A stretch of 45,700 nt of DNA from IMG/VR virus record IMGVR_UViG_2563366840_000010, positions 1 to 45,700 of that record. The stretch is one strand, 5' to 3'. The notes beneath the pieces were generated by a model. It had not been told where the DNA came from. It saw only the letters and a list, made by a program, of their open reading frames with translations, and did not search any database. The DNA is from a virus (taxonomy: Duplodnaviria; Heunggongvirae; Uroviricota; Caudoviricetes). Made by a program: the position numbers and the translations under genes. Below, in pieces: positions 1 to 45,700 of the stretch; positions within the stretch are counted from its first letter, which is position 1; the number at the start of each line of letters is the position of its first letter.

Positions 1-1194
1 ATGATCACCGACACAAAGCTCAGGAAGGCGCTCGGCAAGAAAAGAGATGATATCGAGATTATTTCTGATTCGCACGGGCTCAACGCCAGAATCAGCCAGG
101 CCGGAAAAATATCATTTTTCTATCGGTATCGCTGGGCCGGTAAAGCGGTAAAACTCAATGTTGGTGATTATCCTGCAATGAGTATCACCCAGGCAAGAGA
201 GCGTCGCCAACAATTCAGAAACTGGTTAACTGAGGGACTGGATCCGCGAGAGCAGGTGAAGCTGGATAAGCAGACCCGACAGGAAGCGATGTCCGTTGCC
301 GAAGCGTTCAATTACTGGATTGAAAGGCACTGTATCGCTAACGGGCTAGTTAAAGTCGATTACTATCGCCAGGTGTTTGAGAAACATATCGCCGAACCGA
401 TGAAGAATGTCAAAGTCGATAACACAGCGAAAATGCACTGGATCAACGTCTTCGATTCTATAGAAAGCAGGGTGATGGCTCATTACATGCTTTCGCTGTG
501 CAAACGGGCGTTTAGGTTCTGCGTTAACAGAAGTGTGATCGCCTCAAACCCACTCGAGGGATTACTGCCATCTGATGTCGGGCAAAAGCCTAAAAAGAGA
601 ACTCGCAGGATGGACGATGACGATCTGCGCAAAATCTATCAGTGGTTGAAAAGCCATATGTCGATAGAGTCCGTTTTCCTGGTGAAATTTATTATGCTTA
701 CCGGATGCCGTACGGCTGAGATTCGACTTAGTGAGAGATCATGGTTTCGATTGGATGATAATGAGTGGGTCGTGCCTGCGGGCAGTTATAAAACTCGGGT
801 ACATATTAGAAGGGGACTCTCAGACGCCGCCGTTAACCTGGTCAGAAATCACCTCAAGAAAATAAACACCAATCACCTGGTGACTTCACAACGTAAAATT
901 GATGGCGGGATCAAAGATTCGCCCGTTCATTCACCTGTGGCATCCAATTACGCCCGTTCTATTTGGAATGGAACAGGTATGGCAGAGTGGTCGCTTCATG
1001 ATATGAGGCGGACGATAGCCACAAATCTCTCTGAGTTAGGTTGCCCGCCGCACGTAATTGAAAAGCTGCTCGGGCATCAGATGGTGGGGGTTATGGCGCA
1101 TTACAACCTTCATGACTATATCGATGATCAGAAACACTGGCTCCGCGTTTGGCAGAGCCATCTTGAAGAGATCATCGGAGAGCCCTTCAGTTAA
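1..1194 (+). CDS. int: phage integrase, tyrosine recombinase (397 aa)
   Basis: Complete ORF from ATG at 1; C-terminal region (HDMRRT...LLGH...MAHYNLHDY) fits the R-H-R-Y catalytic layout of tyrosine integrases. Confidence 0.9.
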
Positions 1195-1433
1195 TTTATC
1201 TTCTTTTTATCCTCCCACTCTTTGATTGACTCAGAGCGCCAGCGGTTAGGGTTGCCGGGCCAGTCAGGGGGTGGGAACGGGCATACGAAGCCCCGAGGCA
1301 TTGTGTCTGCACTTTGCCATGACCAAAGGGTTTTGCGTGAAATTTTGTAGCGACTGGTCAGGTCTGACGTTACCAAAATATCATCCATAGCTCTCTCCAG
1401 TTGCCCGTTCGGGCCATTCAAAATCTTTTTCAA
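1191..1433 (-). CDS. putative excisionase-like DNA-binding protein (80 aa)
   Basis: Small ORF convergent with int; FVCPFPPP segment resembles the FPPP motif of lambda Xis; position next to int. Confidence 0.5.
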
Positions 1434-1672
1434 CCAACCTGCCCGGGCAGGGAGCGGAGACGGCGCATGCCGGTCATCGCTGTGGCCACGTAGCTCGCCT
1501 TTCGGTTCACCACCTCCACCCAGACTTTCACGCCTTCAACCTTCACCGTATAAGTCTCTTTCATCTTGCTTCGCCCATAGTCGCCATATGTTTGCAAGTG
1601 AGCTGCCAGCGCGATGTCGCATGCTTGGCGAGCTAAAGGTGATTGCTTACTTCCTCGATTGATCAGTCGCAT
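1430..1672 (-). CDS. hypothetical small phage protein (80 aa)
   Basis: ORF with AGGAG 5 nt upstream of ATG at 1672; stop overlaps the xis-like start (operon-like). Confidence 0.45.
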   Translation of the reverse strand: MRLINRGSKQSPLARQACDIALAAHLQTYGDYGRSKMKETYTVKVEGVKVWVEVVNRKASYVATAMTGMRRLRSLPGQVG

Positions 1673-1710
1673 ATAATCTCCTTGAGGGAGGGGTACCCCT
1701 CCCGGTTTCG

Positions 1711-2829
1711 TCAGGCCACGTATTCCGGTTTCATATCCGCCAGGGTGATGCTGAATTGATCGTGCAGTTCATCGCCTAAGTGACGCTTTGAAGATGCAAG
1801 CATGCGCTCGGCTTCAGCGAACCGTTCGGCTGCATGCGGCTCGTCGGGCTGGGGCAGGGATTTAATAGCCTCCTCAACCTTGTTGCGTGCATCCACTAGG
1901 TAATAACGCTTTACGGCTTTGTTTTTCAGCTCGGTGAATAGTGCGGATCCCAGCGTAGCTTTCGCCGTTTCAATGTCGGCACGCAGCGATTTGGCGCTAT
2001 CCACGTCCTGAGCAGATTCGATGCGTTCGCGGAAATCATCGGCAAGAGAGTCGACATTTACCGACGATTCCTGTGCGCTTTGCGTGGTTGTGACGGTGTC
2101 ACCTGAGATATCAGCCAGGCTAACGCGTTGCGGCGTTGGGTTGATCTCTTTTTCTGTGCGCTGTTCAATCTCATCAGGGGTGTACACACCAAGAACAACT
2201 GCAGGGCAATATAGGCGCGCCCAGTATTTGAGTGCCAGATAAGCGATCTGCTGTTTCGGGTTTGATACCCAAAGTGGAGAATTACGTGTGATTACGCTGG
2301 AGAGGAAAACAGGCTCTCCCCAGGTGATATCACTTTCACCGCGAATAACGGCACCTACCCGTACCGACAGTCCTTGTTCATCAGCACTTTCCCAACCGCG
2401 TACCATTTCTTTCTTGTCGTACGTCCCGCCACCTTTCGCAGGCTTTTTAACGGTTATCTCGCGGCTGCTGGCACATTTCGACCAGTCGCCCTCGTACTCA
2501 TAGTGAAAGCGGCCAACGATGGCGTTTGAGCTGGAGATCACCGCATTAACCAGTTGCGCTTCGTATCCCAGGACACCGTTAACCAGGTGCGTCTTTTGCG
2601 CCACGGCGTAAGGGTTCATACCCCACTGCATCGCCTGCATGATGATGGCCATGCAGTCTGCCGGATTGCCGCGGAGGTGCTCAGGCACCGTTACGGCTGC
2701 CTGTGCCATCAACCCGGCGACAGACTGAAGCTGGGTTAAAGCCTGCACGTTGAAAATGGCATTGCTGGCTGAGATCGTGTTTGGAGTCTGCTGTTCAGCG
2801 GTTACGATATTCGTGTTTTCCATCATCAT
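1711..2829 (-). CDS. recT: RecT-like single-strand annealing recombinase (372 aa)
   Basis: Start overlaps the stop of the upstream RecE-like gene as in recET operons; central region has RecT-like character by eye; family call is from motif recollection only. Confidence 0.65.
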   Translation of the reverse strand: MMMENTNIVTAEQQTPNTISASNAIFNVQALTQLQSVAGLMAQAAVTVPEHLRGNPADCMAIIMQAMQWGMNPYAVAQKTHLVNGVLGYEAQLVNAVISSSNAIVGRFHYEYEGDWSKCASSREITVKKPAKGGGTYDKKEMVRGWESADEQGLSVRVGAVIRGESDITWGEPVFLSSVITRNSPLWVSNPKQQIAYLALKYWARLYCPAVVLGVYTPDEIEQRTEKEINPTPQRVSLADISGDTVTTTQSAQESSVNVDSLADDFRERIESAQDVDSAKSLRADIETAKATLGSALFTELKNKAVKRYYLVDARNKVEEAIKSLPQPDEPHAAERFAEAERMLASSKRHLGDELHDQFSITLADMKPEYVA

Positions 2830-2834
2830 TCCCC

Positions 2835-5800
2835 TTATGCCTGAGTACGCAGCGCTTCAAGGCGGCGCAGGTCGAAGTCGTTCAGTTCGTCGGTGTAGTC
2901 AGCAGTGATTGGCGCTGGCCATTCACCTGTGTCGAATCCGGTTGCGATATTGCGCATCGCTTTGCGGTACTCGAGCATACCCAGCTCCAGTAGTTCAGCG
3001 GATGCCTCGATGATGGCGATCCAGTGGTAGTTCTCGTCTTTGTTGACGAAAATCCAGAAGAACTGATCCAGCGCTGCGGTTTCGCAGTACATAGCCGCGC
3101 TCAGGTGATAATCACGTTCAATAATTTCCCGGTGTAGCCTGGCGCGCAGGCTTTCCTGCTTAACATTCCACATGCTGATGGTTTTCAGGTCTGCACCTAT
3201 ACGCACGCCATCCAGGTCGATCTCAAGGTCAGGGCGCACACGAACTTCCAAGCCCGTCTCCTCGTCAAAACCAAAGTAGCTCACCTCAACGGCTCGGCTA
3301 GGGTGGGTCAGCAGCATGCCGGCGGTCGGGTGTGCCAGAAGCGCTTTTTGAATATTCAGCGCGGTGCTCAGCTGCTGGCGGGTGACCAGCACTTTTCCTT
3401 CCGGGTTATCGCGCCAGGCATCCAGCAGTTCGTCGGCAAATACGGCATCTGGTTTGACTGCCTTCACGGCCTGGATCATGTCTGCTTTGGTACCGGACAC
3501 TTTCAGTGGTGCCGGTTTCTGTGCTTCCTGAGCCACAAGGTCAGGGTTGATGATTGCCAACTGCTCCAGTAGCGCGTCACGGCTGCCGCTGGTTTTAACC
3601 GGCGGCGGCAGGGTGGCGTTGTACTCTTTAATGCATGCCTTCATTGCCGTCGCCGTCTGCTTCTGGTCACCATCAATACGCTGGAAGTCAGCTGGCAGCG
3701 CCATATAGTTCTGTGCCGTTTCTTCCAGGTTAGCGCCAAGCGGAACCTGCGGCGGCAGGGTGGCGTTGTACTCTTCCAGTAACACCTTGATGTCGTCGGC
3801 AGACAGCAGCGCCGGCAGGCTGGCATTGTGCTCATCGATAAAGGCGCGCAGGGTCGCGGCCGTTGTGAATGCGCCTTCAGGGATCACCGGTTCAACGCTG
3901 AATTCTGCGTCCAGTAGTTCAGGCTGCAACGCCAGCGCATGCACCAAGTTGCCCATGTCCAGCACCGCTGAGCGCTCTTTGACGATGGTTTTCTCTACGT
4001 GGCGCGCATTGAAGTACATCAGCGAAACGCGCGCATCTTTCACCTGGGTTGAGCTGATGCCGTTGGCGGCGTGGTAAACCTCGTTTGGCAGCCCTTCATA
4101 GCGGCCTGGCTCGAAATAAGCGGGATAAACAACAGCTGGTTCGTCAGATTGCGCTTCTGGCTCGGTTTGTGCTGCAACTGGTTCGGTTTGGCTTACAGAA
4201 TCGCTATTTTTGGCGACAGAATCCGTATTCTGGTTTACATCGTCCTTCTGGCTGGTATCTGACTCTTCACCAGACTCCAGACTGCTTTCGCCTGGCTGTA
4301 CTTCATCACCAGCTTGTTTTTCATCACTGACAGTTTCTTGAACCTGCACATTGCTGGTGGTCTCCGAAGCCTTTTTCGTGCCATGAGTTGCTGAGTTCTG
4401 CAGCAAAGCCGTAACGTCGAATATTCCGTTGCCGACATTTTTAACCAGTTCTTGTTCGACTTTCTGCGGTTGTGCTGCCGCTTCCTCTGCGCGGCGGCGT
4501 GCTCCTTCTTCACGCACGCGTTGCAGGTTCTCTTCGTGAGTGCAGAAGGATTTGCGCGGAGACTCCTTACCTTCAGGTTGGGGAATTTCCTGTGCTGCGG
4601 GTTCAGCCTCATGCAACGGCAATAACTCGACCGCGGAATTGAACGCGGCTGTCATGGTCTGGTTAACAAATTCCAGGTGAGCGACAGGAGTTAAATGAAT
4701 ATTTTCCGGTGCGATACGTACCAGGTTAAAAATAGCCGTGCGGTTAACACCCAGAACGCCTGGCTGATTGCGCAGGATGTTGCTCCATGATTTCCATGGT
4801 TCTTCTTTTTTGGTCACGATTTCTTTAGCGCGACGAAGAATGCTGCCCGGGATCTCGAAGTGGTTGAAGTCCATAGGCAGAAGGGCACACGCAATCTCTA
4901 AATCGAGAGTGTCCAGTGTGTGGTGTGCGTCAGGTCCACGGTCAGTGACGTAACCGCCGTCGGCATTAGTGCCGGAATCAGTACGCTGCACACTACTGAT
5001 GCGATTACCGGCGGCCCATTCGCGAACGAGGATACCGCGGTCGATGTGAACTGTAGCGAACCACAATTTCAAAAACTGGATTAAGGTTGCGAGTTCAGGG
5101 ATTTTTCCATCGACAGGGAAGACTTTCTTAACGGCATTCACGACTTTATGAATATCGTGCTCAATGGCTTTTTTGAATGCTTCCACATTCTCAGCTGCCA
5201 GCAGCAGGTTCTGGACGTACGCGTCATCGGTGTCCATCTCAAGGCGGACAATCTCATTTTTCTGCCCTGCGTCGATGTGATAGAGATATTCACCATCACC
5301 GATGAACTGAGCCAGTACGCGCTGGCGGAATGGCAGGGTGGCAACAACGATCAGGTTCGGTTGCTGTGTCTGCTGGGATTGCTCTTCGGTATCGACTTCA
5401 CCATCAACGACGCCACCTTCTGCCCGGCCGTTCTCGTCGGTCTGGATACCGTCCTCAACAGTGAGATCTTGACCCGTTGTAACGTCAGCAGCGTTGCTGG
5501 TTTCAGTTTTGAGCAACTGCAACTTACCACTGCGCCAGTCTTCTACCAGTTGATTGCGGTCACCGGCATCGGTGTTCACCCAGTCAGACATGAATGCAGC
5601 GATCAATCTTGGTTCGTGCTCTTCGTCTGGTGTGAAAATGTCCTTAACCGCCCGAATCATTTTCCACTCAGCATTCAGGCTGAGTTTGGCGGTCGCGGGC
5701 ACATCGTTCCTTGCCACAAGCAGGCTATGGAGATATGTATTGCCTTCATCCAGTGACATTTCGCTGGCAGCCAACTGCTGCTCTTTAGTGACGTGGGTTT

Positions 5801-6224
5801 GGTATTTATCGTTCATCAGATGGACGGCAAAGCGGACCGCTGGAGTACGGTTTTCAACCGGGACAATTTCGGACGCAGTCGCATCTTCAACGATTACGGT
5901 CGGAGTAGGTGTGTAGGGGGCGTCAACGGAACCAGTAGACACACCAGCGGCTTTTGGCAGCCAGGTGCGCCCATCGTCCTGAAGCTCGTAGCGATCACAC
6001 CAGGTAAAATCAACTTCACCTTCTTTCGGCAGGCCGTCGACAACTGGGAAATCAGTGCGAATCGGTTTGGCGTAGTCCTTACCCCGACCTGTTTCGATAC
6101 CTGCATCTTCCAGCGCAACATCCAGCATCAGATTGGCGCGAGCCTCGGTTTTAGCAGTGAACCAGACCACTGCATCTTGCTTTCCGGATTTCTGAGTGGC
6201 TTTAACCACATTAAAGAATTCCAT
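2835..6224 (-). CDS. recE: RecE-like exodeoxyribonuclease VIII (1129 aa)
   Basis: N-terminal DFPVVDGLPKEGEVDFTW, mid GNRISSVQRTDSGTNADGGYVTDRG and C-terminal nuclease-domain region GLPNEVYHAANGISSTQ resemble E. coli Rac RecE as I recall it; sits directly upstream of the recT-like gene. Confidence 0.85.
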   Translation of the reverse strand: MEFFNVVKATQKSGKQDAVVWFTAKTEARANLMLDVALEDAGIETGRGKDYAKPIRTDFPVVDGLPKEGEVDFTWCDRYELQDDGRTWLPKAAGVSTGSVDAPYTPTPTVIVEDATASEIVPVENRTPAVRFAVHLMNDKYQTHVTKEQQLAASEMSLDEGNTYLHSLLVARNDVPATAKLSLNAEWKMIRAVKDIFTPDEEHEPRLIAAFMSDWVNTDAGDRNQLVEDWRSGKLQLLKTETSNAADVTTGQDLTVEDGIQTDENGRAEGGVVDGEVDTEEQSQQTQQPNLIVVATLPFRQRVLAQFIGDGEYLYHIDAGQKNEIVRLEMDTDDAYVQNLLLAAENVEAFKKAIEHDIHKVVNAVKKVFPVDGKIPELATLIQFLKLWFATVHIDRGILVREWAAGNRISSVQRTDSGTNADGGYVTDRGPDAHHTLDTLDLEIACALLPMDFNHFEIPGSILRRAKEIVTKKEEPWKSWSNILRNQPGVLGVNRTAIFNLVRIAPENIHLTPVAHLEFVNQTMTAAFNSAVELLPLHEAEPAAQEIPQPEGKESPRKSFCTHEENLQRVREEGARRRAEEAAAQPQKVEQELVKNVGNGIFDVTALLQNSATHGTKKASETTSNVQVQETVSDEKQAGDEVQPGESSLESGEESDTSQKDDVNQNTDSVAKNSDSVSQTEPVAAQTEPEAQSDEPAVVYPAYFEPGRYEGLPNEVYHAANGISSTQVKDARVSLMYFNARHVEKTIVKERSAVLDMGNLVHALALQPELLDAEFSVEPVIPEGAFTTAATLRAFIDEHNASLPALLSADDIKVLLEEYNATLPPQVPLGANLEETAQNYMALPADFQRIDGDQKQTATAMKACIKEYNATLPPPVKTSGSRDALLEQLAIINPDLVAQEAQKPAPLKVSGTKADMIQAVKAVKPDAVFADELLDAWRDNPEGKVLVTRQQLSTALNIQKALLAHPTAGMLLTHPSRAVEVSYFGFDEETGLEVRVRPDLEIDLDGVRIGADLKTISMWNVKQESLRARLHREIIERDYHLSAAMYCETAALDQFFWIFVNKDENYHWIAIIEASAELLELGMLEYRKAMRNIATGFDTGEWPAPITADYTDELNDFDLRRLEALRTQA

Positions 6225-6355
6225 GTGAGATCCTCATTTTTGGGTGTTAGAATCCCCGGACCATTGATAGCGCCCATTGGGTTAACTTTGGTTTTAATGT
6301 TGTTTCCGGTGTAACTTTGGTCGGTACCACCGGAGCCTTTCAGCATTGCGCTGGG

Positions 6356-7037: not shown

Positions 7038-7388
7038 CTAGTGGCTGAGTCCATGCCCCAGACCGTTCAGATAAACTTCAACCAGCAAATCCTTGGTGTA
7101 AGTCATTTCTACGCCGCGATGCAGATACAAACGTCCGCGAGCGTTAGCTGATGCCGTCCAGGTTGAGTCTTTGTGTTTGACGAGCATCCCCGGCTGAACT
7201 GCGCCGCGGTTTACTGTCTGTGTACCGTAGTGCTGATGAACCATGATGTTCTCCAGTTTTTCTGAGTGAACTTCGCTGGTGGTGCCGCGGCGCTGATCTT
7301 CACAGTTGAGCGTTTTAACTCTGCAATTCACCACCGCGAAGCTCACTTCTGTGTTTGCCCTTGTCGCCAGGCTGGCGGAACGTTTCAA
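7038..7388 (-). CDS. hypothetical protein (116 aa ORF; alternative start at 7244 gives 68 aa with a better RBS)
   Basis: First gene downstream of the putative pL-like promoter; no recognisable motifs. Confidence 0.35.
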   Translation of the reverse strand: MKRSASLATRANTEVSFAVVNCRVKTLNCEDQRRGTTSEVHSEKLENIMVHQHYGTQTVNRGAVQPGMLVKHKDSTWTASANARGRLYLHRGVEMTYTKDLLVEVYLNGLGHGLSH

Positions 7389-7523: not shown

Positions 7524-7562
7524 AACTTAAGGTTGGTGTTAATTGTAAATCTGAGGTTTATG
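7496..7562. promoter_or_regulatory. two operator-like sites (oL): TAAAT-N5-GTTTAT at 7496..7514 and 7544..7562
   Basis: Same motif recurs twice between cI-like and cro-like genes. Confidence 0.45.
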
Positions 7563-7599
7563 TGGCTGGGTTTTGTGACACGTCTGCAGAATCGCAGGC

Positions 7600-7640
7600 A
7601 AAAAAAATCCCGACGCTAAGGTCGAGATCGGGGACTTCGT
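7600..7640 (-). terminator. intrinsic terminator (hairpin + T8 on minus strand)
   Basis: Reverse complement reads CCCGA..TCGGG stem followed by TTTTTTTT. Confidence 0.5.
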
Positions 7641-7680
7641 GGCTGGGTGTTGGCGGCTGAGATGGTGGGTGAGGGTGTAA

Positions 7681-7712
7681 AAAACCCGGCGCTGTGGCCG
7701 GGTTTTTTCATT
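7681..7712 (-). terminator. intrinsic terminator, bidirectional (CCCGGC-gctgtg-GCCGGG flanked by A/T runs)
   Basis: aaaaaCCCGGCgctgtgGCCGGGtttttt; downstream of the AT-rich gene on the minus strand. Confidence 0.7.
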
Positions 7713-7832
7713 ACTGCTGGTTAAATCCTTTCGGCGAGTGCTGCTGTTCTTTATTACCAAATTTTTGATTTACAATGATTTTATAAGCGTTATTGAGAGC
7801 TTGCTTTATAGACATTAATATCTCCTTATGTG

Positions 7833-9236
7833 TTATTGACGATTAAAGTAGTTAGAGTTTAGCTCTTTAGGGAAGTAGTGTTTACGATTTACCCAAACAA
7901 ATCCATCAACTTTTGATATCACAGCGACATCAACAGGCCCACCGACAGTTTCATAATCATGTGATACTTTTCTTTTGAATGCAGTGATGTTCACTAATGA
8001 TTCGGCCATATACGCAAGATCTGCCTTCCCAAGTGATTGCAACATCGATATCATTTTATTTGTATGGTTATTAACAATATAGCTTTCAAGTTTAGTATCG
8101 TGATCTTGTAAAAGTACGTTTTTGAGTTCCTCAATTTCACTGGAGAAGTGATTGGCTAGTACTCCATTGTTCATTGCAGGGAAAATATTGCTAGAAACAT
8201 AATGATTAAGCCGATCAAAAACTTCCTCTGTAAGAGTTCTGTTAAAATTAATGATGTTAGGGTTGCACCCATCAATGAAAGTTACTACTTCATCTTCTTG
8301 AGCAAATGGTATAACAAACCCCATATTGGTTACCTCATTATGGGATTTATCATCAATATTATGGATCATCAATTTGTTTTTAAAAATGCCGTAGATATGA
8401 AGAGTGCAAATGGAAGGGTAATATTCTTCCTCTCCATAACCTGTTATAACAATCCCTGAATATGTACGACTAGCATGGACTTTGAAAATTAAACAAGTGG
8501 AATATAATATGACTTTTTCCATAAGCTCTTGCTGTATATTTTCACAGTTATCAAGAACAATAATTGATGAAATGTATGGCGATATTAAATCTTGTATATA
8601 TGCTAAAGCATCATTAAACTCTTCTGTATCAAACCCTTCGAAAAAGAGATTATTCCTTAAGATTCCTATCTCTAAATCAAAGGCTTGCTTAACTATGTTT
8701 TGAAAAATAACATTGTCGAGTTCAACGGCGGGGTTCATTGTTAAATAGTTTACTACATTATTATCATTAATGTATCTCATCAAACCTTTGAGGTTATCAA
8801 CAACAAGGTTTATAACGCAAGCCTCTCTCATTTCATTTGTTATAAGGTCTGAGTTACCATTGATGAATTTTACAAAGTCATTAACATATTCTTTAATGGT
8901 AGGGAAACTAGTTTTCCCCAATTGTTTTCTATAGGATTTAATTATAAGTTCCCACGGTGCGCCACCCAGTGTCGCATTATTATAAATCATGATCCCCACG
9001 GGATGGTGTTTAGATAGTTCGAATAGTTTTTCCGCACTATTATTTATTTTTACTAATCTATTATGCTCTGTGGTGACTGCAGAGTCAGCAGCAAGGGCGA
9101 TTCCAGTATTATTTATTACAACAATCTCAGCTGTCATTGCAAAACATCCCGTGTAGTAGTGATAAATATTAATTAAATTGATAGTTTTTTTCAATCTAAC
9201 ATAAATGGCGGAATCACCCCCCAGTAAAGACATCAT
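7833..9236 (-). CDS. AT-rich accessory (moron) protein with proteasome-beta/HslV-like motifs; likely true start at 9137 (434 aa)
   Basis: Long ORF co-oriented with and 43 bp downstream of the repressor gene; visibly AT-rich; internal start gives MTAEIVVINNTGIALAADSAVTT; C-terminal VGGPVDVAVISKVDGFVWV. Confidence 0.7.
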   Translation of the reverse strand: MMSLLGGDSAIYVRLKKTINLINIYHYYTGCFAMTAEIVVINNTGIALAADSAVTTEHNRLVKINNSAEKLFELSKHHPVGIMIYNNATLGGAPWELIIKSYRKQLGKTSFPTIKEYVNDFVKFINGNSDLITNEMREACVINLVVDNLKGLMRYINDNNVVNYLTMNPAVELDNVIFQNIVKQAFDLEIGILRNNLFFEGFDTEEFNDALAYIQDLISPYISSIIVLDNCENIQQELMEKVILYSTCLIFKVHASRTYSGIVITGYGEEEYYPSICTLHIYGIFKNKLMIHNIDDKSHNEVTNMGFVIPFAQEDEVVTFIDGCNPNIINFNRTLTEEVFDRLNHYVSSNIFPAMNNGVLANHFSSEIEELKNVLLQDHDTKLESYIVNNHTNKMISMLQSLGKADLAYMAESLVNITAFKRKVSHDYETVGGPVDVAVISKVDGFVWVNRKHYFPKELNSNYFNRQ

Positions 9237-9278: not shown

Positions 9279-9662
9279 TCAGTCCCCCTGCGAGCGAATC
9301 CGCCCCTTCATGTACTTCTCGTACAGCTCATCTAACTCTTTCAGGCGAAGCGCAAAAATGCGGAGCATGTTCTGCTGCTCTTCTTCCGGTAACTGGCGGT
9401 AGAGCTCGAGCAAACGCTGTTCGTCCGGTTTGAGACCGTCTTTCTCTCCAACGTCTTCACCGAGTAGCCAGGCGACAGAAATACCAACAGCGTCGGCTAT
9501 GGCCAGTGCCGATTTCTTACTAATCACGCCTTTTTTGAACCAGCCGTTTACGGCCTGAGGGGTGACTCCAGCTATTCTTGCCATGTCTGCTTTGGTAACG
9601 CCGCGATCAGTGATCTCAGTAAGGCGCTCCACCAGAACGAGGTTGGGTTCTTCTTTTCTCAT
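9279..9662 (-). CDS. CI-like prophage repressor, HTH-XRE type, no peptidase domain (127 aa)
   Basis: HTH segment KADMARIAGVTPQAVNGWFKKG; divergent from cro-like gene; the listed 217-aa ORF is an upstream extension without RBS. Confidence 0.8.
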   Translation of the reverse strand: MRKEEPNLVLVERLTEITDRGVTKADMARIAGVTPQAVNGWFKKGVISKKSALAIADAVGISVAWLLGEDVGEKDGLKPDEQRLLELYRQLPEEEQQNMLRIFALRLKELDELYEKYMKGRIRSQGD

Positions 9663-9670
9663 ATGGTCAT

Positions 9671-9736
9671 TGTAAATATTTGGTTTATGCACGCAATAAA
9701 TCCAAAGTTTGCATGAAGTATAAATCTGTGGTTTAC
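9671..9736. promoter_or_regulatory. oR-like operator region: TGTAAATatttgGTTTATG (9671..9689) and TATAAATctgtgGTTTAC (9719..9736) plus divergent promoters
   Basis: Repeated sites matching the oL copies; candidate pR TTGCAT-17-TTTACT upstream of cro. Confidence 0.5.
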
Positions 9737-9764
9737 TTCTGCTATCAATAAGCAGGAGAAGCAC

Positions 9765-9983: not shown

Positions 9984-9994
9984 GAGCACTGACA

Positions 9995-14646: not shown

Positions 14647-14648
14647 TT

Positions 14649-17424: not shown

Positions 17425-17455
17425 GCCCGCATTATCTTCATTGAAAACTGGCAAC

Positions 17456-37663: not shown

Positions 37664-39067
37664 ATGCCGTCAATTATCCAGGACGCAATAACTTCTCTTT
37701 TGGGGGGAGATACCAGCGATGACTGGCAGGGGCAGTTACGGCCCAGCTCATTCAGAGGTGTGCCATTTGCAATTGTTGCTGAGGAAGGGAGCCACGGCCG
37801 ACGCCAGGCGGTACATGAATATCCCTACCGTGATACAGCCTGGATAGAGGATATCGGGCGGGCAACACGGCGATTTGTTATTCGCGGTTTCTTGATCCAG
37901 AACAGCCAGGTTTACGGCGGCGGCGATGCTATCACGCAGCGCCAGTCACTGATTGAAGCCTGTGAACAAAAAGGTAGCGGTACGCTTGTCCATCCGACAC
38001 TGGGCGAATTAACGGTTTCCATCCCTGAGAATGGTTTGCGTATTTCCGGTTCGATGGAGAACGGGCGAGTATTTGAATTTACCCTGATGGCAATTGAATC
38101 AGGGCTTAAAGTGTTTGCTGTCACGGGCAGTACCGTTGCAGGCGCCACGGTGAAAACCAACTATCTGAAACTGGTCAGCACTGCTGTGCTGAGCACGATT
38201 GCCAGAGTTAAGAGTGAAATCCGCGGTGTCACACAGGCTATAAACACCATCAGAGGCACGGTCACGTTCTGGACTAACATGGTTGACAGCACCATCAGTC
38301 AGGTCACGAATCTCAGCAATGTCCTGAACTCCACGTTCGGGAATACCCGGTACGGACGTTACAGTAAAGGCTCTGTGGGCGGTAGTTCCTCTGCTGTTGC
38401 TGGCAAATCGTCAGTTGCTGATGTGGATGATGAGAGAGCACTGGCTGACAAGGTAACAGCCCAGTCGGTAATGGACCGGAAAAATGTTACCGACAGGTCG
38501 AGCCAGCTTAGCAGCTCCAACACACCTGATGAGTTTGTCCAGGGCGTCGCCGACGTGGTAAACGCAATTCTTAACAGCGCCGGCAGCGTTAATGACCGAA
38601 TCACAGCGCTGGAAAAACTGGCTAATTCAATCAGCACGGAGTACCAGCAGTCCGACAGCAGCAAAGCGATTTCGGCGACCATGAACACGCTGATTGTTGT
38701 GCTATGTACTGGTGCCATGACCAGTGCCGCTGCGGACTCCAGACCAGCCAGTACAGACGAGGCAGAAGAGTTAACTCAACGAGTTTCTGTGCAACTTGAT
38801 ACGGCGCTGGTTCTGGCTGGAGACCGCGCGGACGATGATATGTATAACGCGCTTCTCGCCGTCAGATCGGCATTCCTTTCTACGATGAGTGAGCGTGCTT
38901 CTGGTCTGAGCGAGCTTCTGCAGGTTACTACCGCTCAGCCGCTTCCGGCGCTGACGCTGGCAAACCGATTATACCAGGATGCCACCCGTGCAGATGAACT
39001 GGTACAGGAAGCGCGCGTACCGCATCCGGCGTTTATGCCGACAACCATGAAGGTACTGAGGCAATGA
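37664..39067 (+). CDS. DNA circulation protein, Mu gpN-like (467 aa)
   Basis: GGAGG RBS before ATG 37664; position after tape measure in a Mu-type tail module. Confidence 0.75.
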   Translation: MPSIIQDAITSLLGGDTSDDWQGQLRPSSFRGVPFAIVAEEGSHGRRQAVHEYPYRDTAWIEDIGRATRRFVIRGFLIQNSQVYGGGDAITQRQSLIEACEQKGSGTLVHPTLGELTVSIPENGLRISGSMENGRVFEFTLMAIESGLKVFAVTGSTVAGATVKTNYLKLVSTAVLSTIARVKSEIRGVTQAINTIRGTVTFWTNMVDSTISQVTNLSNVLNSTFGNTRYGRYSKGSVGGSSSAVAGKSSVADVDDERALADKVTAQSVMDRKNVTDRSSQLSSSNTPDEFVQGVADVVNAILNSAGSVNDRITALEKLANSISTEYQQSDSSKAISATMNTLIVVLCTGAMTSAAADSRPASTDEAEELTQRVSVQLDTALVLAGDRADDDMYNALLAVRSAFLSTMSERASGLSELLQVTTAQPLPALTLANRLYQDATRADELVQEARVPHPAFMPTTMKVLRQ

Positions 39068-40149
39068 ATGCAGACAGCGATCTGGATGTTGTTTCTTTGA
39101 CGGTCGACGGCAAAATCATCGAGGGGTGGGATTCTGTCCGGGTAACGCGGGGTATTGAGCGTTTTCCCTCTGATTTCGATCTTGGGCTAATGGATTACTT
39201 CCCTGGCAACGAAGATCGTCAACTTGTTGAAGAGGGAATGTCTTGTGAAGTTCGTATCGGAGATGATCTGACACTGACGGGATATGTTGATGACTGGGAA
39301 CCCGCACTATCGCGCTCCCGCCATGAGGTCCGCGCCACGGGCAGGAGCAAATGTCAGGACCTGGTGGATTGCTCAGCCGAGTGGCCTAACAACGTCATCA
39401 ATGCCAGTAATGCGCTTGAAATTGCTTCTCGCCTGGCATCCTACTACGGCATCACCGTAACCACGGATGTTGATGAACTTGTGAAGGTACCCCAGTTCAC
39501 TCTGAACTGGGGTGAGTCTCCGCAAGAAGTCATCGATCGGGTGGCCAGATGGTCTGCTCTGCTTTACTACGATCAGCCCGATGGAAACCTGTTACTGACC
39601 CGGGTGGGAACACGTCGTGCGGCAAGTGGGATAGCCGAAGGGGTAAATGTCGAGCAGGCATACTACCGCAAATCGATGGCTGACAGGTTTTCAGATTATG
39701 TCGGTGTATCAATGAGCGTTTCTCCAATTGCAGGGTATTCGCCTGATACGGCCTATGACGCTGTGACTCTGGCAACGGCGAGAGATCCGGAGGCCGCCCG
39801 CATGCGGTACCGAAAACATATATCGATTGTGGAAAGTACCCTGATGGCTACTCAACAGGCACAAAGTGCGATCGACTGGGAAATGAACCGGCGGTACGGA
39901 CGTTCAAAACAGCTCTCGGTAACCATCGATTCCTGGCGGGATAAAGACGGGAAACTGTGGGAACCAAACACATTGATCCCCGTTGATCTTCCCACCTTAC
40001 GGTTGCCGAAGACTGAATTGCTACTGGCAGAAGTCACCTATATGCGCGATGACTACGGCACCCATGCACGCATGACGCTGATGCCGCCTGAAGCATTCTC
40101 CGTTCAGCCATATGCCTTCTACCAGAACCTGGCGGGATTCAATACATGA
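39064..40149 (+). CDS. baseplate hub protein, Mu gpP / P2 gpD-like (361 aa)
   Basis: Position and size in a Mu-type tail gene order. Confidence 0.75.
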   Translation: MNADSDLDVVSLTVDGKIIEGWDSVRVTRGIERFPSDFDLGLMDYFPGNEDRQLVEEGMSCEVRIGDDLTLTGYVDDWEPALSRSRHEVRATGRSKCQDLVDCSAEWPNNVINASNALEIASRLASYYGITVTTDVDELVKVPQFTLNWGESPQEVIDRVARWSALLYYDQPDGNLLLTRVGTRRAASGIAEGVNVEQAYYRKSMADRFSDYVGVSMSVSPIAGYSPDTAYDAVTLATARDPEAARMRYRKHISIVESTLMATQQAQSAIDWEMNRRYGRSKQLSVTIDSWRDKDGKLWEPNTLIPVDLPTLRLPKTELLLAEVTYMRDDYGTHARMTLMPPEAFSVQPYAFYQNLAGFNT

Positions 40150-40730
40150 AGCAACTATTTAAACATGCAGCGATCAGGATCGCCGGCATGCTGGGGATTG
40201 GCCGGATCACGGCTATGAAAGATGGTGGGGTGGTGCAGTCTATCCAGTACCAGACTCCGCTGGAGGTGGCCAGCGCTCCGCGGATGGCAGAATTTGGCTT
40301 TTCATCCGGCCTGCCGTCAGGGACTGACGTGGTTCTGGCTTTTATTGGCGGTGATCGTTCCAGCGCGGTGGTAATTGCGTCCAACCATCAGGGGTTCCGT
40401 CATACAGGCCTGAAAGCGGGCGAAACGGTCATGTATAACCAGTGGGGCCTTAATATTCTCCTGACGGAGAAGGGGATCTTCCTGGATGCAAAGGGCCAGA
40501 ATGTTGAGGTCAATAACGCCACTAACGTGACCATCAATGCCAGCCAGGGGATCCTTGCAAATACCCCGATCCTGAGGTGCACGGGTGACATTGTTGATAA
40601 CTGTGAAACCAATACCCGAACACTGAAAGAGCTGCGGGATGCACATAATGACCATGATCATGTGGTTAAAAATGCCCAGAGTGGCAATGACAATATCCGC
40701 AGCCAAAAAACAGAGGATCAGGTGACATGA
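40146..40730 (+). CDS. baseplate spike/assembly protein V-like (194 aa)
   Basis: Position and size. Confidence 0.7.
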   Translation: MKQLFKHAAIRIAGMLGIGRITAMKDGGVVQSIQYQTPLEVASAPRMAEFGFSSGLPSGTDVVLAFIGGDRSSAVVIASNHQGFRHTGLKAGETVMYNQWGLNILLTEKGIFLDAKGQNVEVNNATNVTINASQGILANTPILRCTGDIVDNCETNTRTLKELRDAHNDHDHVVKNAQSGNDNIRSQKTEDQVT

Positions 40731-41164
40731 GTGACATCGCTTCATTCTGGAATGTGGATGAGATGTTTGCTGACTGGCAGAAAGGGCTGGGTGAACTCAC
40801 CACGGGGAACGATTTACAGACTGCAATACTGGACAGCCTGTTTACCGACAGGCTGGCGCGCGCTGACGATGATTATGAGGATAGCGATCGCCGCGGCTGG
40901 TGGGGGGATTCCGGGGAGGAATCCCAACTGGGATCCCGGCTGTGGCTGCTACGGCGGAAAAAACTGACCCCGGATGTAGCAAAAAAAGCGGAGGAATACT
41001 CGAGTGAAGCGCTCAACTGGTTAAAGGTTGATGGCGTTGTCAGCGAGGTTATTCCTGTTGCAAGGATCGTCCTGCCTGACCGGCTCAATCTCATTATCCG
41101 CTATCAGGCACCGGGGAAGGACTGGCAGGAATTCAGGTTTTACTGGATATGGGAGCAACGTTAA
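40727..41164 (+). CDS. baseplate protein, Mu gp46 / gpW-like (145 aa)
   Basis: Position and size. Confidence 0.7.
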   Translation: MSDIASFWNVDEMFADWQKGLGELTTGNDLQTAILDSLFTDRLARADDDYEDSDRRGWWGDSGEESQLGSRLWLLRRKKLTPDVAKKAEEYSSEALNWLKVDGVVSEVIPVARIVLPDRLNLIIRYQAPGKDWQEFRFYWIWEQR

Positions 41165-41165
41165 T

Positions 41166-42308
41166 ATGCCGTTTAAACGACCGACGCTGAGCGAACTCCG
41201 CGACGAAAACCGGAAATTTATGCAGGCGGAGCTTGAGGATGTTGGTGCGCTCCTGCGCTTCGCGAACCTGAAGGTACTGGCTGACATGGATGCGGGGATG
41301 GGGCATCTGCATTACGCCTACCTTGACTATATTGCCCTGCAGACAAACCCGTTTACCTCTACCGATGAGTATCTCGCCGGGTGGATGGCCCTTAAGCAGG
41401 TATTCAGAAAACCAGCTGCAGCGGCGAAGTCGCCTGCGGTACAGGCTAGTGGCAGTGTTGACTGTATTATCCCTGTTGGCTCGATCATTAACCGCGGGGA
41501 CGGATACCAGTACCGGACGGATGCAGATCTTAAAATTCAGGCAGATGGATTTGGTATCGTCGCGGTGACGGCCATACTGCCGGATATTACCAGTGATGTA
41601 ACGGGTGGAGGCGCGCGCGGTAACGCTGATGCCGGGACCATAATGACCCTGGACGCGAATATTGCTGGCGTGGATCCACAGGTAACGTTACTGTCCGCTG
41701 CGACCGGCGGAGCCGATATTGAAACGGAAGAGGATTTTCGCAGTCGTGGCTTGCTGGCATGGCAGAATCCGCCTCAGGGTGGAAGCGACGCCGATTATAA
41801 AAAATGGGCGCTTGAGGTTTCGGGCGTCACCCGCGCGTGGGTAAAGCGGCGTCTGAACGGGGCCGGGACCGTTGGCGTGTATATCATGTGTGATCGGAAT
41901 GACAATGGTGGGTTTCCGGTCGGTACCGACGGAATATCCCAACTTGAGGACTGGGGGGCTGTTAAAGCCACCGGAGACCAGCTCGCTGTCGCCGACCACA
42001 TCTATCCGCAGCAGACAGACACTGCCATTGTTTTCGTATGTTCCCCGATCAAGAAAGTCATCAATATTGAAATCTCTGGGATCAAAAATGCCGACAGCAC
42101 CACAGTTCAGGGGATAAAAGACGCGCTGACGGCGCTGTTTTTTGATGAAGCTAACCCTGATGGTTCTGGGAAAGTTTACCTCTCTGATATTAACGGGAGT
42201 ATCGGCGGTGTTAGCGGCACGACGGGCTATATTCTTAACTCTCCGACGGCCAATATCACCTTTGCTGTTGGCGAAATTCCGGTGCTTGGCGGGGTGAATT
42301 TTGTATGA
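41166..42308 (+). CDS. baseplate J-like protein, Mu gp47 (380 aa)
   Basis: Listed ORF start trimmed to ATG 41166 just after the upstream stop. Confidence 0.8.
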   Translation: MPFKRPTLSELRDENRKFMQAELEDVGALLRFANLKVLADMDAGMGHLHYAYLDYIALQTNPFTSTDEYLAGWMALKQVFRKPAAAAKSPAVQASGSVDCIIPVGSIINRGDGYQYRTDADLKIQADGFGIVAVTAILPDITSDVTGGGARGNADAGTIMTLDANIAGVDPQVTLLSAATGGADIETEEDFRSRGLLAWQNPPQGGSDADYKKWALEVSGVTRAWVKRRLNGAGTVGVYIMCDRNDNGGFPVGTDGISQLEDWGAVKATGDQLAVADHIYPQQTDTAIVFVCSPIKKVINIEISGIKNADSTTVQGIKDALTALFFDEANPDGSGKVYLSDINGSIGGVSGTTGYILNSPTANITFAVGEIPVLGGVNFV

Positions 42309-42898
42309 GCCTCTTTTCAAAAAATGATTATGCCGGTGCGCTTGGTGCGCTGCTACCGACGGGCAGGGCGTGGCCCCGGTCGCAAAGAACGGTACAGGCT
42401 GCGGTATTACGGGCACTGGGCAGCGCGTTTCAGCGTTCTGACAACGATGCGCAAAGCCTGATTACTGGTGCTTTTCCCCCTACAGCGACGGTAATGTTGT
42501 CAGAATGGGAAAGCTCTCTGGGGTTACCAGATGATTGTGCGATTGGTGAATCCGGTGGCGTCAGCGATCGCCAGCGCGCCGTGGTGGCAAAGTTAATCAG
42601 CACCGGCGGCCTGAACCGCGATTATTACATCCGGGTGGCTGCAGCTCTTGGTTATACCATCACTATCACACAGTTCCGGCCCGCTATGAGTGGCATGTCA
42701 GTATGCGGTGATGCGCTTAACGGTGACGAGTGGCCATTTACCTGGCGGATAAATGCGCCACAAACAACGATCAAGTATTCGCTTGCTGGCGCGTCCTACT
42801 GCGGAGATCCGCTCGCATCGTGGGGCAATAAACAACTGGAGTGTTCAATCAACAAAATTGCCCCATCCCATCTGAACATCATTTTCAATTATTCATAA
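42305..42898 (+). CDS. tail protein, Mu gp48 / YmfQ-like (197 aa)
   Basis: Position before tail fibre, as in e14 ymfQ. Confidence 0.7.
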   Translation: MSLFSKNDYAGALGALLPTGRAWPRSQRTVQAAVLRALGSAFQRSDNDAQSLITGAFPPTATVMLSEWESSLGLPDDCAIGESGGVSDRQRAVVAKLISTGGLNRDYYIRVAAALGYTITITQFRPAMSGMSVCGDALNGDEWPFTWRINAPQTTIKYSLAGASYCGDPLASWGNKQLECSINKIAPSHLNIIFNYS

Positions 42899-42949
42899 CT
42901 GATATTTCCCCCTCTGATTTTATCGCTTAACACTAAGTGAGGATTAACT

Positions 42950-43282
42950 ATGCTCCGAATCGGGCAAGTCGAAGCCACTGCAACGCAGGATGGCAAATAT
43001 ACTGATGGAAGTGTTGCTGGTGGTATTGCCGCAACGAGGCTGCGGGCAGCAGCGTTTAATGCCATGCAGGAAGAGTTAGCGCATATCGTAGAGTCAGCAG
43101 GATTGGCGCTCGACATTAACGATATGACTCAGGTTTTAAAAGCCATTCAAAAACTCACACTGAGCCGTGCAAACCCATTTGCCGATATCAAATCAGATGG
43201 TGCAGCGGCGATTTCTACGGCTCTCACAAACCTTGGTTTGGGAGAAGCGGCAGCACTACATGTTGGGATACCTGAAACGTAG
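42950..43282 (+). CDS. tail fibre, conserved N-terminal part only (110 aa), stops 13 codons after the inversion crossover site
   Basis: Prophage tail-fibre N-terminal character; crossover site lies inside the coding sequence. Confidence 0.6.
   Translation: MLRIGQVEATATQDGKYTDGSVAGGIAATRLRAAAFNAMQEELAHIVESAGLALDINDMTQVLKAIQKLTLSRANPFADIKSDGAAAISTALTNLGLGEAAALHVGIPET
43221..43246. promoter_or_regulatory. left inversion crossover site (gix/hix-like): CTCTCACAAACC-TT-GGTTTGGGAGAA
   Basis: 26-bp imperfect palindrome with AAACC-NN-GGTTT core. Confidence 0.6.
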
Positions 43283-45079
43283 ACTCCGGCCACGCCCTCA
43301 ACAGCCTGGGGTAATTGAAAGGTTACGTCTCTCACTGGTAAAATCCACCCAGATCTGGCTGAGGCTGTCCCGACGAATATATCGCCGCAATCACGGAGAG
43401 ATTCTTTCCGTAGCTGTGTTCATAGGCGCGCGGAGTGCGCCATGCGTGGTTTGTTGGCTTATGGCGATCCTCCTTTAGCCTCTGGTGGGGGGTTGGTTAA
43501 GAATTCCTATGGCCTAACAGGTATCGACCCAAAGGGAGGTTACTGAGCGTTAACGACCGGTGCTATGGTAGAGATGAATAACACATGTTCAATTTTTGGT
43601 GAGTCATTTTATTGAGGGTAATCCATACCAAGGAACGTGTCTTTTAACTAAGTCATAATGCCTTTCTCCTGATTAATGCCGTTGTAAATAACGAACTAGA
43701 GGGATGGAAGGCATCAGACGCTAACGAATAGAATTTAAATGCTAACAGGAAGGTTTAGGCTGCACCGCCACACGAAAAAATCCTTATTGCTGGCGATATT
43801 CCGCCGCATTCCTGTTCAGATGTTCCTCCACTCAATCAGGCTGGGCTTACTGTCTTCCCTGCATCAGATATAAAGTTATTGAAAAATCTGGCCAACGAAC
43901 ACGGTAACAGCATACATAGCCCCGAAAAAGGAGCTTCGGATGGTCTGAAAGCTCCGGAACTGTAGCCAGATAATATGACCCCTAATGACCCGTTCACGCC
44001 GTACCTGGATGGTGATGCCGGGGAATCGGATATTGAAAGGCCTACGCAGCCGGCAGTTCCGGTAGGCGCGGAAGAGGCGCGGCGCCAGTAACTGATTGCG
44101 TCAGCGCGTCCATCTAACCGACCGCATCAGTTGGACTGGCAGGTCCGACGTGAACCAGCGTACGTACAACCTACCATCTCTAATGCAGTGCACGGATGGA
44201 TGGAATCGCTGCATGAAACAGTGACCGGCGCTGCGCTTGTTCTCCGTTTGCCGCAGCAGTCGGCTGCGTAGCAGTTTCCATAACTGGTTTACCACAATCA
44301 TCATCCTGCTATAGGGTATACAGATCGATAGTGGTCATATTTTCAGGCGACTGTTCCTGACCTTTGAGTTGTCTCGAAGCTGCCGTTTCGGGCCTATATA
44401 TGCTTTCAACGCGATGGTTTGCCAGATATTTCAATAATTTTCTTTCTGATGCAGTAAATTCAATATGACCAGCATTCGTGGGACCAGGAATATCTGACCA
44501 CGCAGGCGCCGCAATACCGACGGCCACACGAATATATTCTGTTGGCGGTTAAAGATTAAACTCCCTCACAATATTTTGATTATCATCGGTAGCATCTCAT
44601 GAATCCGAACCATCGGATTTATTTTTAACAATGACTTCCATCATCAGGAAGGCATTATGCTATGGGCTATAGAGATGTTCGTTCGTATGATTCCCCCACA
44701 ATCAACCTATACCCTAACAATTCACTTAGTGTAATTCAGCGCTACCATGTCACTAGCTGATGATATGCTGCGACCAGAAGTTGAATCGGAACACGTTGGC
44801 GCATCGTCCGTGACCACGCACCGCCGCTCAGAGCCAAAAAAAGCGTCGCGAGAAGCAGAAAAAGTAAGCGTGGAGCAGACCCCTCGCTTGGCATACGAGA
44901 TGCTGAATATAACACTGCGTATATGAGGCAATTTAGTTGGCGTATACGCCTTTGCCAGATCCGGCTGTACTTCCGCGGTAAGAAACGCCACATAGCATTT
45001 AAGACTGGCAGAAGACGGAGTGGCCGAAATCCGAGGTTCCCCCGTCCCAACAGGTAATGCTGAGCCTTCTCCCAAACCA
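43234..45079. other. ~1.85 kb invertible segment between inverted crossover sites; no intact ORF >125 aa
   Basis: Flanking sites share 15 nt (cttctcccaaaccaa) in inverted orientation; central dinucleotides TT and AA. Confidence 0.5.
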
Positions 45080-45092
45080 ACCTTTTTTATAA
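45067..45092. promoter_or_regulatory. right inversion crossover site: TTCTCCCAAACC-AA-CCTTTTTTATAA
   Basis: About 20/26 match to Salmonella hixL as recalled; inverted relative to the left site. Confidence 0.55.
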
Positions 45093-45151
45093 CCATCAAA
45101 AATCTGGTGATGCTTCGCCGTTTCTCCTGTTTTCATAACAGGAGAAATCCC

Positions 45152-45700
45152 ATGATTTACGGTTATGCCCGAGTATCAACAAACCACCAGGACACTGAAT
45201 TGCAACTAACGGCGCTCAAGTCAGCGGGTTGTGAGAAAATTTTTGAAGAGCATGCCAGCGGGAGGAAATCGAATCGGCCGGTTCTAAAACGGCTGATCGC
45301 CACTATGCAGCCGGGGGATGAACTGGTGGTCTGGAAGCTGGACAGGATAGGCCGCAACGTTCTGCATGCGCTGTTGATGTTCCAGCAGTTACAGGAAAAG
45401 GGTATCAACTTCCGCAGTATTACCGATGGCGTGGATCTCAAAACAGCCAGCGGCCGCTATAACTTTCGTAACATCCTTTCCGCAGCACAATATGAATCTG
45501 ATCTTAATAGCGAACGTACCTTAGCAGGGCTGGCCGTAGCCAGGGCAAAAGGGCGAGTTGGTGGTCGCAGGCCTAAGTTCACGGATGAGCAATGGCGGGA
45601 AATGGGGGAGCGGATGGCAACCGGTGAATCACGACAAAGCGTATCAAAAACGTATGGAGTAGGGCTCTCAACTCTGTATAAAAAGTTTCCAGCTAGCTGA
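45152..45700 (+). CDS. serine DNA invertase, Hin/Gin/Pin/Cin family (182 aa)
   Basis: MIYGYARVSTNHQ catalytic-Ser start, LVVWKLDRIGRN, C-terminal HTH; AGGAGAAA RBS. Confidence 0.9.
   Translation: MIYGYARVSTNHQDTELQLTALKSAGCEKIFEEHASGRKSNRPVLKRLIATMQPGDELVVWKLDRIGRNVLHALLMFQQLQEKGINFRSITDGVDLKTASGRYNFRNILSAAQYESDLNSERTLAGLAVARAKGRVGGRRPKFTDEQWREMGERMATGESRQSVSKTYGVGLSTLYKKFPAS

Follow-up and report, generated by a model that had tools for sequence, protein, structure and literature searches.

A lambdoid Escherichia coli prophage with a lambda-family head, Mu-type contractile tail genes and a fibre switch recorded as a blend of both orientations

We analysed positions 1 to 45,700 of the IMG/VR virus record IMGVR_UViG_2563366840_000010 (Caudoviricetes) over their full length (45.7 kb) and refer to them as the window; apart from the invertible segment, its features lie on the plus strand unless minus is stated. 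The window begins with the start codon of a tyrosine integrase gene and ends with the stop codon of a serine invertase gene, and between them the open reading frames (ORFs) and their family matches follow the order of lambda, i.e., int/xis, recombination, divergent repressor/cro, replication, nin, Q, lysis, cos, head and tail. Close relatives in E. coli carry the same int-to-pin unit between kch and yciI/tonB, the attachment locus of phi80, indicating that the window is one prophage in prophage order with its attachment sites just outside. With a confidence of about 90% we read it as the genome of a single, complete temperate E. coli phage, in which a lambdoid early half of the phi80/mEp237/HK225 type is joined to a virion module of the type found in the Citrobacter rodentium prophage phiNP and the Serratia phage BZS1. 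An earlier note on this DNA had proposed that lambdoid regulation and head genes are joined to a Mu-type contractile tail in one genome, and the homology searches bear this out.

The window was compared protein by protein with the genomes of lambda, phi80, Mu, SfV, e14, BZS1, phiNP, mEp237 and HK225. In a megablast search against phage records, 46-49% of the first 23 kb aligned with mEp237 and HK225, at 95-98%, and the left half also matched phi80; the same search returned no close phage record for the right half. A survey of 50,697 phage records for close homologues of both capsid and sheath singled out phiNP and BZS1 as the only records with both (capsid 89-92%, sheath 65-72%), the next-best values being 59% and 48%. 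We regard the window as the E. coli counterpart of this virion type, the late half of which is present, over at least 80% of its length and at 98-99.8% identity, in 32 of 5426 complete E. coli genomes, so that at least 32 complete genomes carry it. Positions 22614-43247 are 99.1% identical in DNA to a prophage of E. coli Z22-7 that is itself bounded by yciI/tonB, and patches of the lambdoid gene pool, at 97-99.6%, are held in common with phi80, mEp237, HK225 and lambda. The IMG/VR contig UViG_2778261573_000004 matches the window at 17261-27086 (99.96%) and 41114-43247 (99.95%) and ends 402 nt into a different allele of the fibre cassette, which marks it as a close relative.

Packaging, head and contractile tail genes

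The cos cleavage site is a 12-nt cohesive end at 23866-23877 that matches exactly the cohesive end of BZS1, GCATTGCGCGCC, determined experimentally for that phage as 12-nt 5' lambda-like ends (PMC7556043). GCATTGCGCGCC occurs once in the window, within a 103-nt context that is 79% identical to the cos junction of BZS1; the small terminase gene follows 180 nt downstream, and ATGTCCCA repeats extend beyond cos to about 24060. Homologues of Nu1, A, W, B, C, D, E and FII then stand in that order, and all the lambda-like genes named in the earlier note (O, P, Q, Nu1, A, W, B, C and E) were found by Pfam and PHROG matches where they were expected. The terminase is made up of a small subunit in the Nu1 position (24058-24627; phrog_57, E 5e-36) and a large subunit of the gpA family (24569-26692; GpA_ATPase and GpA_nuclease). 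They are followed by the gpW head-tail adaptor (26701-26964; PF02831, phrog_75), a portal of the lambda family (26964-28601; PF05136, E 7e-100), a 288-aa S49 head maturation protease resembling gpC (28598-29464; PF01343) and a 196-aa scaffold-like protein in the Nu3 position (29466-30056; phrog_6382, and more weakly the C-terminal regions of head proteases). Protease and scaffold are here two separate genes, unlike the nested C/Nu3 of lambda. The set continues with a decoration protein of the gpD family (30056-30460; PF02924), the major capsid protein of the gpE family (30558-31607; PF03864), which is 92% identical in amino acids to that of BZS1 and 89% to that of phiNP, and an FII-type head closure protein (31994-32353; PF05354, phrog_82). 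For the ORF in the FI position (31609-31989), Pfam, PHROG and a comparison with lambda proteins gave no match to the FI packaging chaperone. The head is lambda-like at the family level only, its proteins showing 27-38% aa identity to the head proteins of lambda and phi80.

From the gene for a DUF2635 protein onwards the genes are collinear with gp38, L, M, gp41, gp42, N, P, gp45, gp46, gp47 and gp48 of Mu. The DUF2635 protein is the equivalent of Mu gp38 (32899-33096; PF10948), and the contractile sheath (33093-34595) carries the sheath Pfam domains, is 37-41% identical in amino acids to Mu L and the SfV sheath and matches the solved Mu sheath (PDB 9khy) with an E value of 2e-93. The tail tube (34599-34970; PF10618) precedes a tail assembly chaperone that is probably extended by a -1 frameshift (34972-35399; PF10109). 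A slippery heptamer, TTTTTTG, at 35229 lies near the end of the chaperone gene, and the -1 frame is open to 35399, up to the start of the tape measure gene, consistent with the programmed frameshift usual for tail chaperones. The tape measure protein (35392-37320; phrog_2276, E 3e-152) and a DNA circulation protein of the Mu gp43/N type (37664-39067; PF07157, DNA_circ_N) are followed at 39064-42898 by the baseplate genes, equivalents of Mu gp44 (P), gp45, gp46, gp47 and gp48 in this order (GpP domains, Mu_Gp45, GP46, Baseplate_J, Mu_Gp48). Profile searches confirmed the Mu-type genes that the earlier note had listed (sheath, tube, DNA circulation protein, P/V/gp46/J/gp48 and invertase), and a siphovirus-type tail, checked as the alternative, is contradicted by the match of the sheath to that of Mu and by the gp38-gp48 order.

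The interval from capsid to sheath comprises four ORFs, those of the FI position, FII, 32350-32895 and DUF2635. The third of these is a predicted tail terminator; its AlphaFold model (34 homologues, pLDDT 66.5, pTM 0.63) resembles the terminators of lambda (gpU), R4C, T5 and P74-26. In the fold search the R4C terminator gave TM scores of 0.60-0.75, lambda gpU, T5 p142 and the P74-26 protein were also matched, and the Mu terminator (9khy_1) and T4 gp15 matched more weakly. The terminator identity came from this fold search alone: BLASTP against Mu gp37 and a PDB sequence search were blank for this ORF, and in PHROGs it, Mu gp37 and SfV orf9 fall in three different families. A PDB sequence search with FII was likewise blank. 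We consider portal, gpW, FII, terminator, and tube with sheath to be the likely chain of the head-tail joint, and on the family matches we place the change from lambda-type to Mu-type sequence between FII and DUF2635.

Early region, late control and lysis

The integrase (1-1194; Arm-DNA-bind_3 and Phage_integrase domains) is of the phi80 type, with 100% aa identity to phi80 Int, and the excisionase (1191-1433, minus) is 99% identical in amino acids to the xis region of phi80. The RecT and RecE recombination genes (1711-6224, minus; RecT, Exonuc_VIII and PDDEXK domains) share 97.5-99.5% DNA identity with mEp237 and HK225, as part of longer blocks that span 1-5065 (mEp237, 99.5%) and 1-6325 (HK225, 97.5%). 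The replication genes O and P (10604-12231; Phage_rep_O, PF04492, and Phage_lambda_P, PF06992) are 99.4% identical in DNA to phi80 and encode proteins with 100% aa identity to phi80 gp15 and gp14, and 39-47% to lambda O and P. NinG/Rap is encoded at 14592-15260 (PF05766, E 5e-79), and further profile matches in the early region are a DUF4060 protein, an HNH-AP2 nuclease, DinI and DUF1367.

The immunity region (9279-10552) is of the Rac type (RacR/YdaS/YdaT), consisting of a short helix-turn-helix (HTH) repressor, a divergently oriented YdaS-like Cro and a YdaT-like protein. The repressor ORF spans 9279-9932 on the minus strand (HTH_3 and a weak CI_repr match) with a likely start near 9692 that would give about 137 aa, and this region is 99.7% identical to that of strain CUWW10, which encodes a 139-aa HTH protein. 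The Cro-like YdaS-type gene and, in the cII position, the YdaT-type gene occupy 9765-10552 (PF15943, PF06254), the YdaT-type protein being 39% identical to phi80 cII. On the minus strand a Kil-like cell-division inhibitor (7038-7388; phrog_294, E 1e-35) and a low-GC accessory gene of 467 aa (7833-9236, about 39% GC; phrog_5990, a family of unknown function) are also encoded. The latter had no Pfam match and no PADLOC defence-system match, and PADLOC gave none for seven other accessory genes; it may nevertheless be a candidate exclusion or defence gene. It sits between kil and the repressor, where lambda has rex and phi80 has gp40A.

The late antiterminator Q (15394-16176; PF03589) is 38-42% identical in amino acids to Q of lambda, phi80 and SfV, and Q-type antitermination is predicted from this homology (38% to lambda Q). 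The region downstream of it, 16236-16441, given a length of 207 nt, is 97.1% identical to lambda 44575-44781, immediately downstream of lambda Q, and we take it, from what is known of lambda, to be the late promoter (pR') and leader region. A tRNA-Asn gene lies at 16444-16518 (ARAGORN, Rfam), and beyond it, at 17236-17428, is a match to the sRNA family STnc100 (RF02076, 71.7 bits). Two lysis cassettes stand in tandem, the first with holin, lysozyme and spanin (17834-19192; Holin and Phage_lysozyme Pfam domains, phrog_214; 91.8% DNA identity to HK225) and the second with a LydA-type holin, lysozyme and Rz (20698-22101; PF16083, PF00959, PF03245), with a ClpP-like serine protease of the SDH type between them (19767-20669; PF01972). 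An independent IMG/VR contig has the same double arrangement (99.96%), indicating that it is real, and the double cassette probably marks a recombination joint. A junction 44-mer (20704-20747) has matches in eight IMG/VR contigs and none among the genome representatives. Just upstream of cos is a conserved gene (22603-23253) with 70% aa identity to BZS1 p72 and 79% to its phiNP homologue; from its match to phrog_1924 ('minor tail protein') the product is possibly a minor tail or neck protein.

The fibre switch and its recorded sequence

The right end of the window carries a predicted host-range switch of the Din family (Gin/Cin/Pin/Hin type). The constant N-terminal part of the fibre gene (42950-43247) is 48% identical in amino acids to the N-termini of the SfV fibre and e14 StfP. 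Inside the gene lies the left Pin crossover site (43228-43247, plus), whose inverted partner is the right site (45066-45085, minus); with a common core of TTGGTTTGGGAGAAG, they are the only two matches in the window, against 0.02 expected by chance. The Pin DNA invertase, a serine recombinase (45152-45700; Resolvase and HTH_7), shares 99% aa identity with phi80 PinL and 51-55% with Mu Gin and e14 PinE, and the DNA of pin is 93.6-99.8% identical to that of phi80, mEp237 and HK225. The invertible segment between the sites (43248-45065) encodes a pair of alternative fibre C-termini, together with two genes for tail fibre assembly. Its recorded sequence, however, is disrupted: the fibre ORF that begins at 42950 stops after 110 codons, and over the next 1.8 kb no ORF exceeds 75 aa. 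A close match to the recorded segment was found in no E. coli genome, though both flanks match at 99-100%, and an exact-match scan of viral, genome and metagenome collections with a 42-mer from it gave nothing. Translated searches found the fibre C-termini and assembly genes on both strands, free of indels and with many in-frame stops, and a sensitive search paired the whole stretch, without a net gap, with invertible fibre cassettes that other E. coli prophages carry, at about 63% identity.

With the invertible cassette of E. coli strain TW10690 as the reference, the ungapped identity of the segment is 62.5%, without an indel over 1841 nt, and to the reverse complement of the reference, in mirror register, it is 62.6%. 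The reference and its reverse complement are only 26% alike and yet 98.9% of the bases of the segment agree with at least one of them. Which orientation a given base follows looks like the toss of a fair coin (664 vs 670 bases; 670 runs where 667 are expected), with no correlation between mirror positions and no preference for any base, and the mix begins and ends exactly at the two inverted sites. As such a pattern is not that of a biological sequence, we conclude that the recorded segment is a superposition, base by base, of both orientations of the Pin-invertible segment, an artefact of the sequence and not gene decay. Decay of a pseudogene and hypermutation were rejected on the substitution spectrum, the distribution over codon positions and the absence of indels.

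In a culture, segments inverted by Gin, Cin or Pin should come to stand in both orientations. A blend like this one is expected when a population mixed at about 1:1 is base-called or consensus-called in register, and a computational merge could also produce it. The latter reading, in which the blend is purely computational (a consensus of two differently oriented records or assemblies, or deliberate editing) and says nothing about Pin activity in the sequenced strain, would account for independent choices at each base and the lack of indels as random tie-breaking between two sequences, and for the absence of the exact sequence from the collections scanned. Noisy reads or superimposed traces from a population with the two orientations at roughly 1:1 would give the same pattern, mixing is what is expected of Pin-type segments, and two E. 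coli genomes carry the cassette in opposite orientations relative to pin; we hold the purely computational origin to be possible, with a chance clearly below even.

When the segment is rebuilt with the TW10690 reference, the constant part of the fibre reads in frame into either C-terminus; depending on the orientation, the open fibre is 218 or 239 aa long and the assembly protein behind it, likewise intact in both, has 147 or 200 aa. The same 1.84-kb cassette (3001-4841) is carried by TW10690 and OkiPb01716 in opposite orientation relative to pin, in one case within a P2-like prophage and in the other within an e14-like element. Since it stands beside a phiNP-type tail in the window, the cassette evidently moves between unrelated tail types. 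Beside pin in phi80 (23737-23879) and mEp237 (22441-22583) is a 143-bp fragment, flipped and 95.8% identical to the left end of the segment, which is a relic of a once complete switch; our search of the literature on the phi80 pinL relic gave nothing usable.

Several observations weigh against a complete and functional phage. The confidence of the terminator model is only moderate (pLDDT 66.5), and PHROG, BLASTP and PDB searches did not confidently find a tail completion (Neck1) protein. The product of the gene upstream of cos (22603-23253) was tried as a tail completion protein like lambda gpZ, to which it has only a weak common PHROG link and no BLASTP match, and it has no PDB match; it may still be the missing protein, whose gene would then lie at the other end of the packaged DNA. 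In a profile search the repressor showed no recognisable S24 self-cleavage domain, so that induction may not follow the route of lambda CI. No homologue of N was found among the ORFs scanned and no antitermination element in Rfam, and the small ORFs at 6128-6346 and 7539-7760 are without assignment. Either of the two complete tandem lysis cassettes may be the one in use. Finally, the recorded fibre segment contains 15 in-frame stops and does not give the true sequence of this copy.

These stops raise the question of whether the same mosaic is a defective (cryptic) prophage that makes no infectious particles, as e14 is. The degraded fibre regions of some relatives (Z22-7 has a partial fibre gene and one fibre/assembly set only) and the doubled lysis cassettes, which point to recent rearrangement, speak for it. 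We nevertheless think a defective prophage unlikely, as the virion genes other than the fibre are full length when set against those of phiNP and BZS1 (for most, coverage is 97-101%), no damage is seen in int, xis, O, P, Q or cos, and the stop pattern is that of a two-orientation mix and unlike decay: it is the blend that creates the 15 false stops and makes the fibre genes look decayed. That the disrupted segment (43248-45065) is real sequence, an old decayed pseudogene or a hypermutated cassette, would agree with its lack of ORFs above 75 aa over 1.8 kb and of any E. coli genome at high identity, but is scarcely credible given a transition:transversion ratio of 249:442, all 12 substitution types at about equal frequency, three equally affected codon positions, no indel, the coin-flip choice between reference and flipped copy, and flanks 99-100% identical to other prophages. 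Equally far-fetched is a lambdoid remnant beside a Mu-like prophage or tailocin cluster, two neighbours that could mimic a Mu-type tail with lambda-type early genes, since there is a single integrase, a single cos, no transposase and no match to Mu A/B, no break separates the lambda-type head genes from the Mu-type tail genes, phiNP and BZS1 form their virions from this same contiguous module, and relatives lie as a single unit between kch and yciI.

Proposed life cycle and comparison with known phages

Taking the window as a single complete temperate phage, we propose a life cycle from the gene families, gene order, identities, cos match, crossover sites and in-frame fusions described above; as the element is known from its sequence, expression, assembly, contractility, the route of induction and inversion by Pin in the sequenced culture are predictions. 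The lambdoid early half would supply Int/Xis and RecET, a repressor of the RacR type with a Cro-like gene divergent from it, replication by O/P, the nin genes and antitermination by Q. Judged from its parts, Q-dependent late transcription would pass the lysis genes and cos and continue into the virion genes. The lambda-family terminase would cut the 12-nt cos and fill a capsid built of the lambda-family portal, S49 protease, scaffold, gpE and gpD, and gpW and the FII-type closure protein would complete the head. The head would then dock onto the tail terminator capping a Mu-type tube and contractile sheath, atop a baseplate of the Mu gp43-gp48 type. By flipping the 1.8-kb segment, Pin would join one constant fibre N-terminus to either of two C-termini, each paired with its own assembly chaperone, and host range would be switched.

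The tail genes of Mu (gp38-gp48) stand in the same order as those of the window at 30-39% identity, and the Gin/G-segment host-range switch of Mu is of the same design as Pin here. Mu features that are not in the window are the transposase A/B, the Mu-type head, the repressor, the late regulators and mom; the window proteins had no match in the Mu early region (A/B) and include a tyrosine integrase and O/P instead. Unlike Mu, the window would replicate by O/P, integrate site-specifically and package from cos.

The earlier note had also likened the window to SfV and e14, which held for the layout and the tail but not for the head or for closeness of kinship. SfV has a lambdoid layout, a Q homologue and a Mu-type tail in the same gene order, with tail proteins at 25-50% aa identity. 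Its head is of another type: the head proteins of the window had no match in SfV, nor did the terminase, portal and capsid of SfV find any in the window. SfV further differs in carrying gtr serotype-conversion genes and no invertase. In e14 a lambdoid layout is likewise joined to a Mu-type tail, and the element ends like the window (ymfQ, fibre, tfa, tfa', fibre', pin), with the last baseplate genes, the fibre N-terminus and Pin at 31-55% aa identity and a P segment of the same design as the fibre switch. Measured directly, e14 and SfV are 92-98% identical, so that e14 is an SfV-type remnant; our literature search for a comparison of the two gave nothing usable. phiNP and BZS1 are much closer to the window than either.

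The window has its attachment locus, Int/Xis, O/P and Pin (93.6-100%) in common with phi80, mEp237 and HK225, as well as a large part of the early region. The virion genes of these phi80-like siphoviruses, in contrast, are of the lambda/N15 type; their tails are non-contractile (genes Z, U, V, G, T, H, M, L, K, I, J), and their head proteins are only 27-38% identical to those of the window. Behind the same attachment site, integrase, replication genes and invertase, the phi80 group thus carries a lambda/N15-type particle and the window a contractile one of the phiNP type, and tail morphology is a poor guide to relatedness among temperate coliphages. That near-identical early regions at the same locus carry a siphovirus or a myovirus particle, depending on the strain, illustrates the modular evolution of temperate coliphages. 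It is conceivable, as a tentative and rather doubtful proposal, that this prophage and the phi80-like siphoviruses are alternative virion versions of one lambdoid lineage, in which the block from cos to the fibre switch was exchanged between lambda/N15-type and phiNP-type sets and the flipped 143-bp relic is the scar of replacement. If so, one recombination joint would lie inside the Pin-invertible segment. For sequence records in general, an active or polymorphic inverton can enter a record as a base-by-base blend that resembles a pseudogene and wrongly marks a prophage as defective, and such blends can be recognised by checking every base against both orientations of a reference.

The closest kin of the virion module are known as particles. 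phiNP (OR565852) has all 24 virion genes, from small terminase to gp48, collinear with those of the window at 33-93% aa identity (capsid 89%, tube 93%, sheath 72%, and 79% for the gene upstream of cos), and its regulation is also lambdoid, with O, Q and holin/Rz. It differs in its integrase, in its attachment site at ssrA and in its early, immunity and lysis genes, has neither a Pin invertase nor an invertible fibre segment, and over the virion module is only 69-74% identical to the window in DNA. phiNP is temperate, is released spontaneously, infects derivatives of E. coli K-12 and shows a contractile tail by electron microscopy (PMC6456863). In BZS1 (vB_SspM_BZS1, MT843275), 24 of the 24 virion genes are collinear with the window at 34-92% aa identity, and the 12-nt cohesive end, a similar cos context and the lambdoid layout (CI/Cro, O, Q, S/R/Rz) are common to both. 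BZS1 integrates in tRNA-Lys by means of a P22-like integrase, its early region is unrelated, and it has O-antigen acetylase genes beside the fibre and no invertase. It is a temperate myovirus with a contractile tail by electron microscopy and 13 virion proteins confirmed by mass spectrometry (PMC7556043).

A contractile tail has thus been seen in particles of phiNP and BZS1, and for the window it is predicted from the genes. By its homologies the element is assigned to an already described type of mosaic, for which the SfV/e14 lineage is ruled out in favour of that of phiNP and BZS1 with its lambda-family head. A lambdoid-Mu mosaic of the phiNP/BZS1 lineage, carried behind an early region and attachment site of the phi80 family, will be of little surprise to the specialist.

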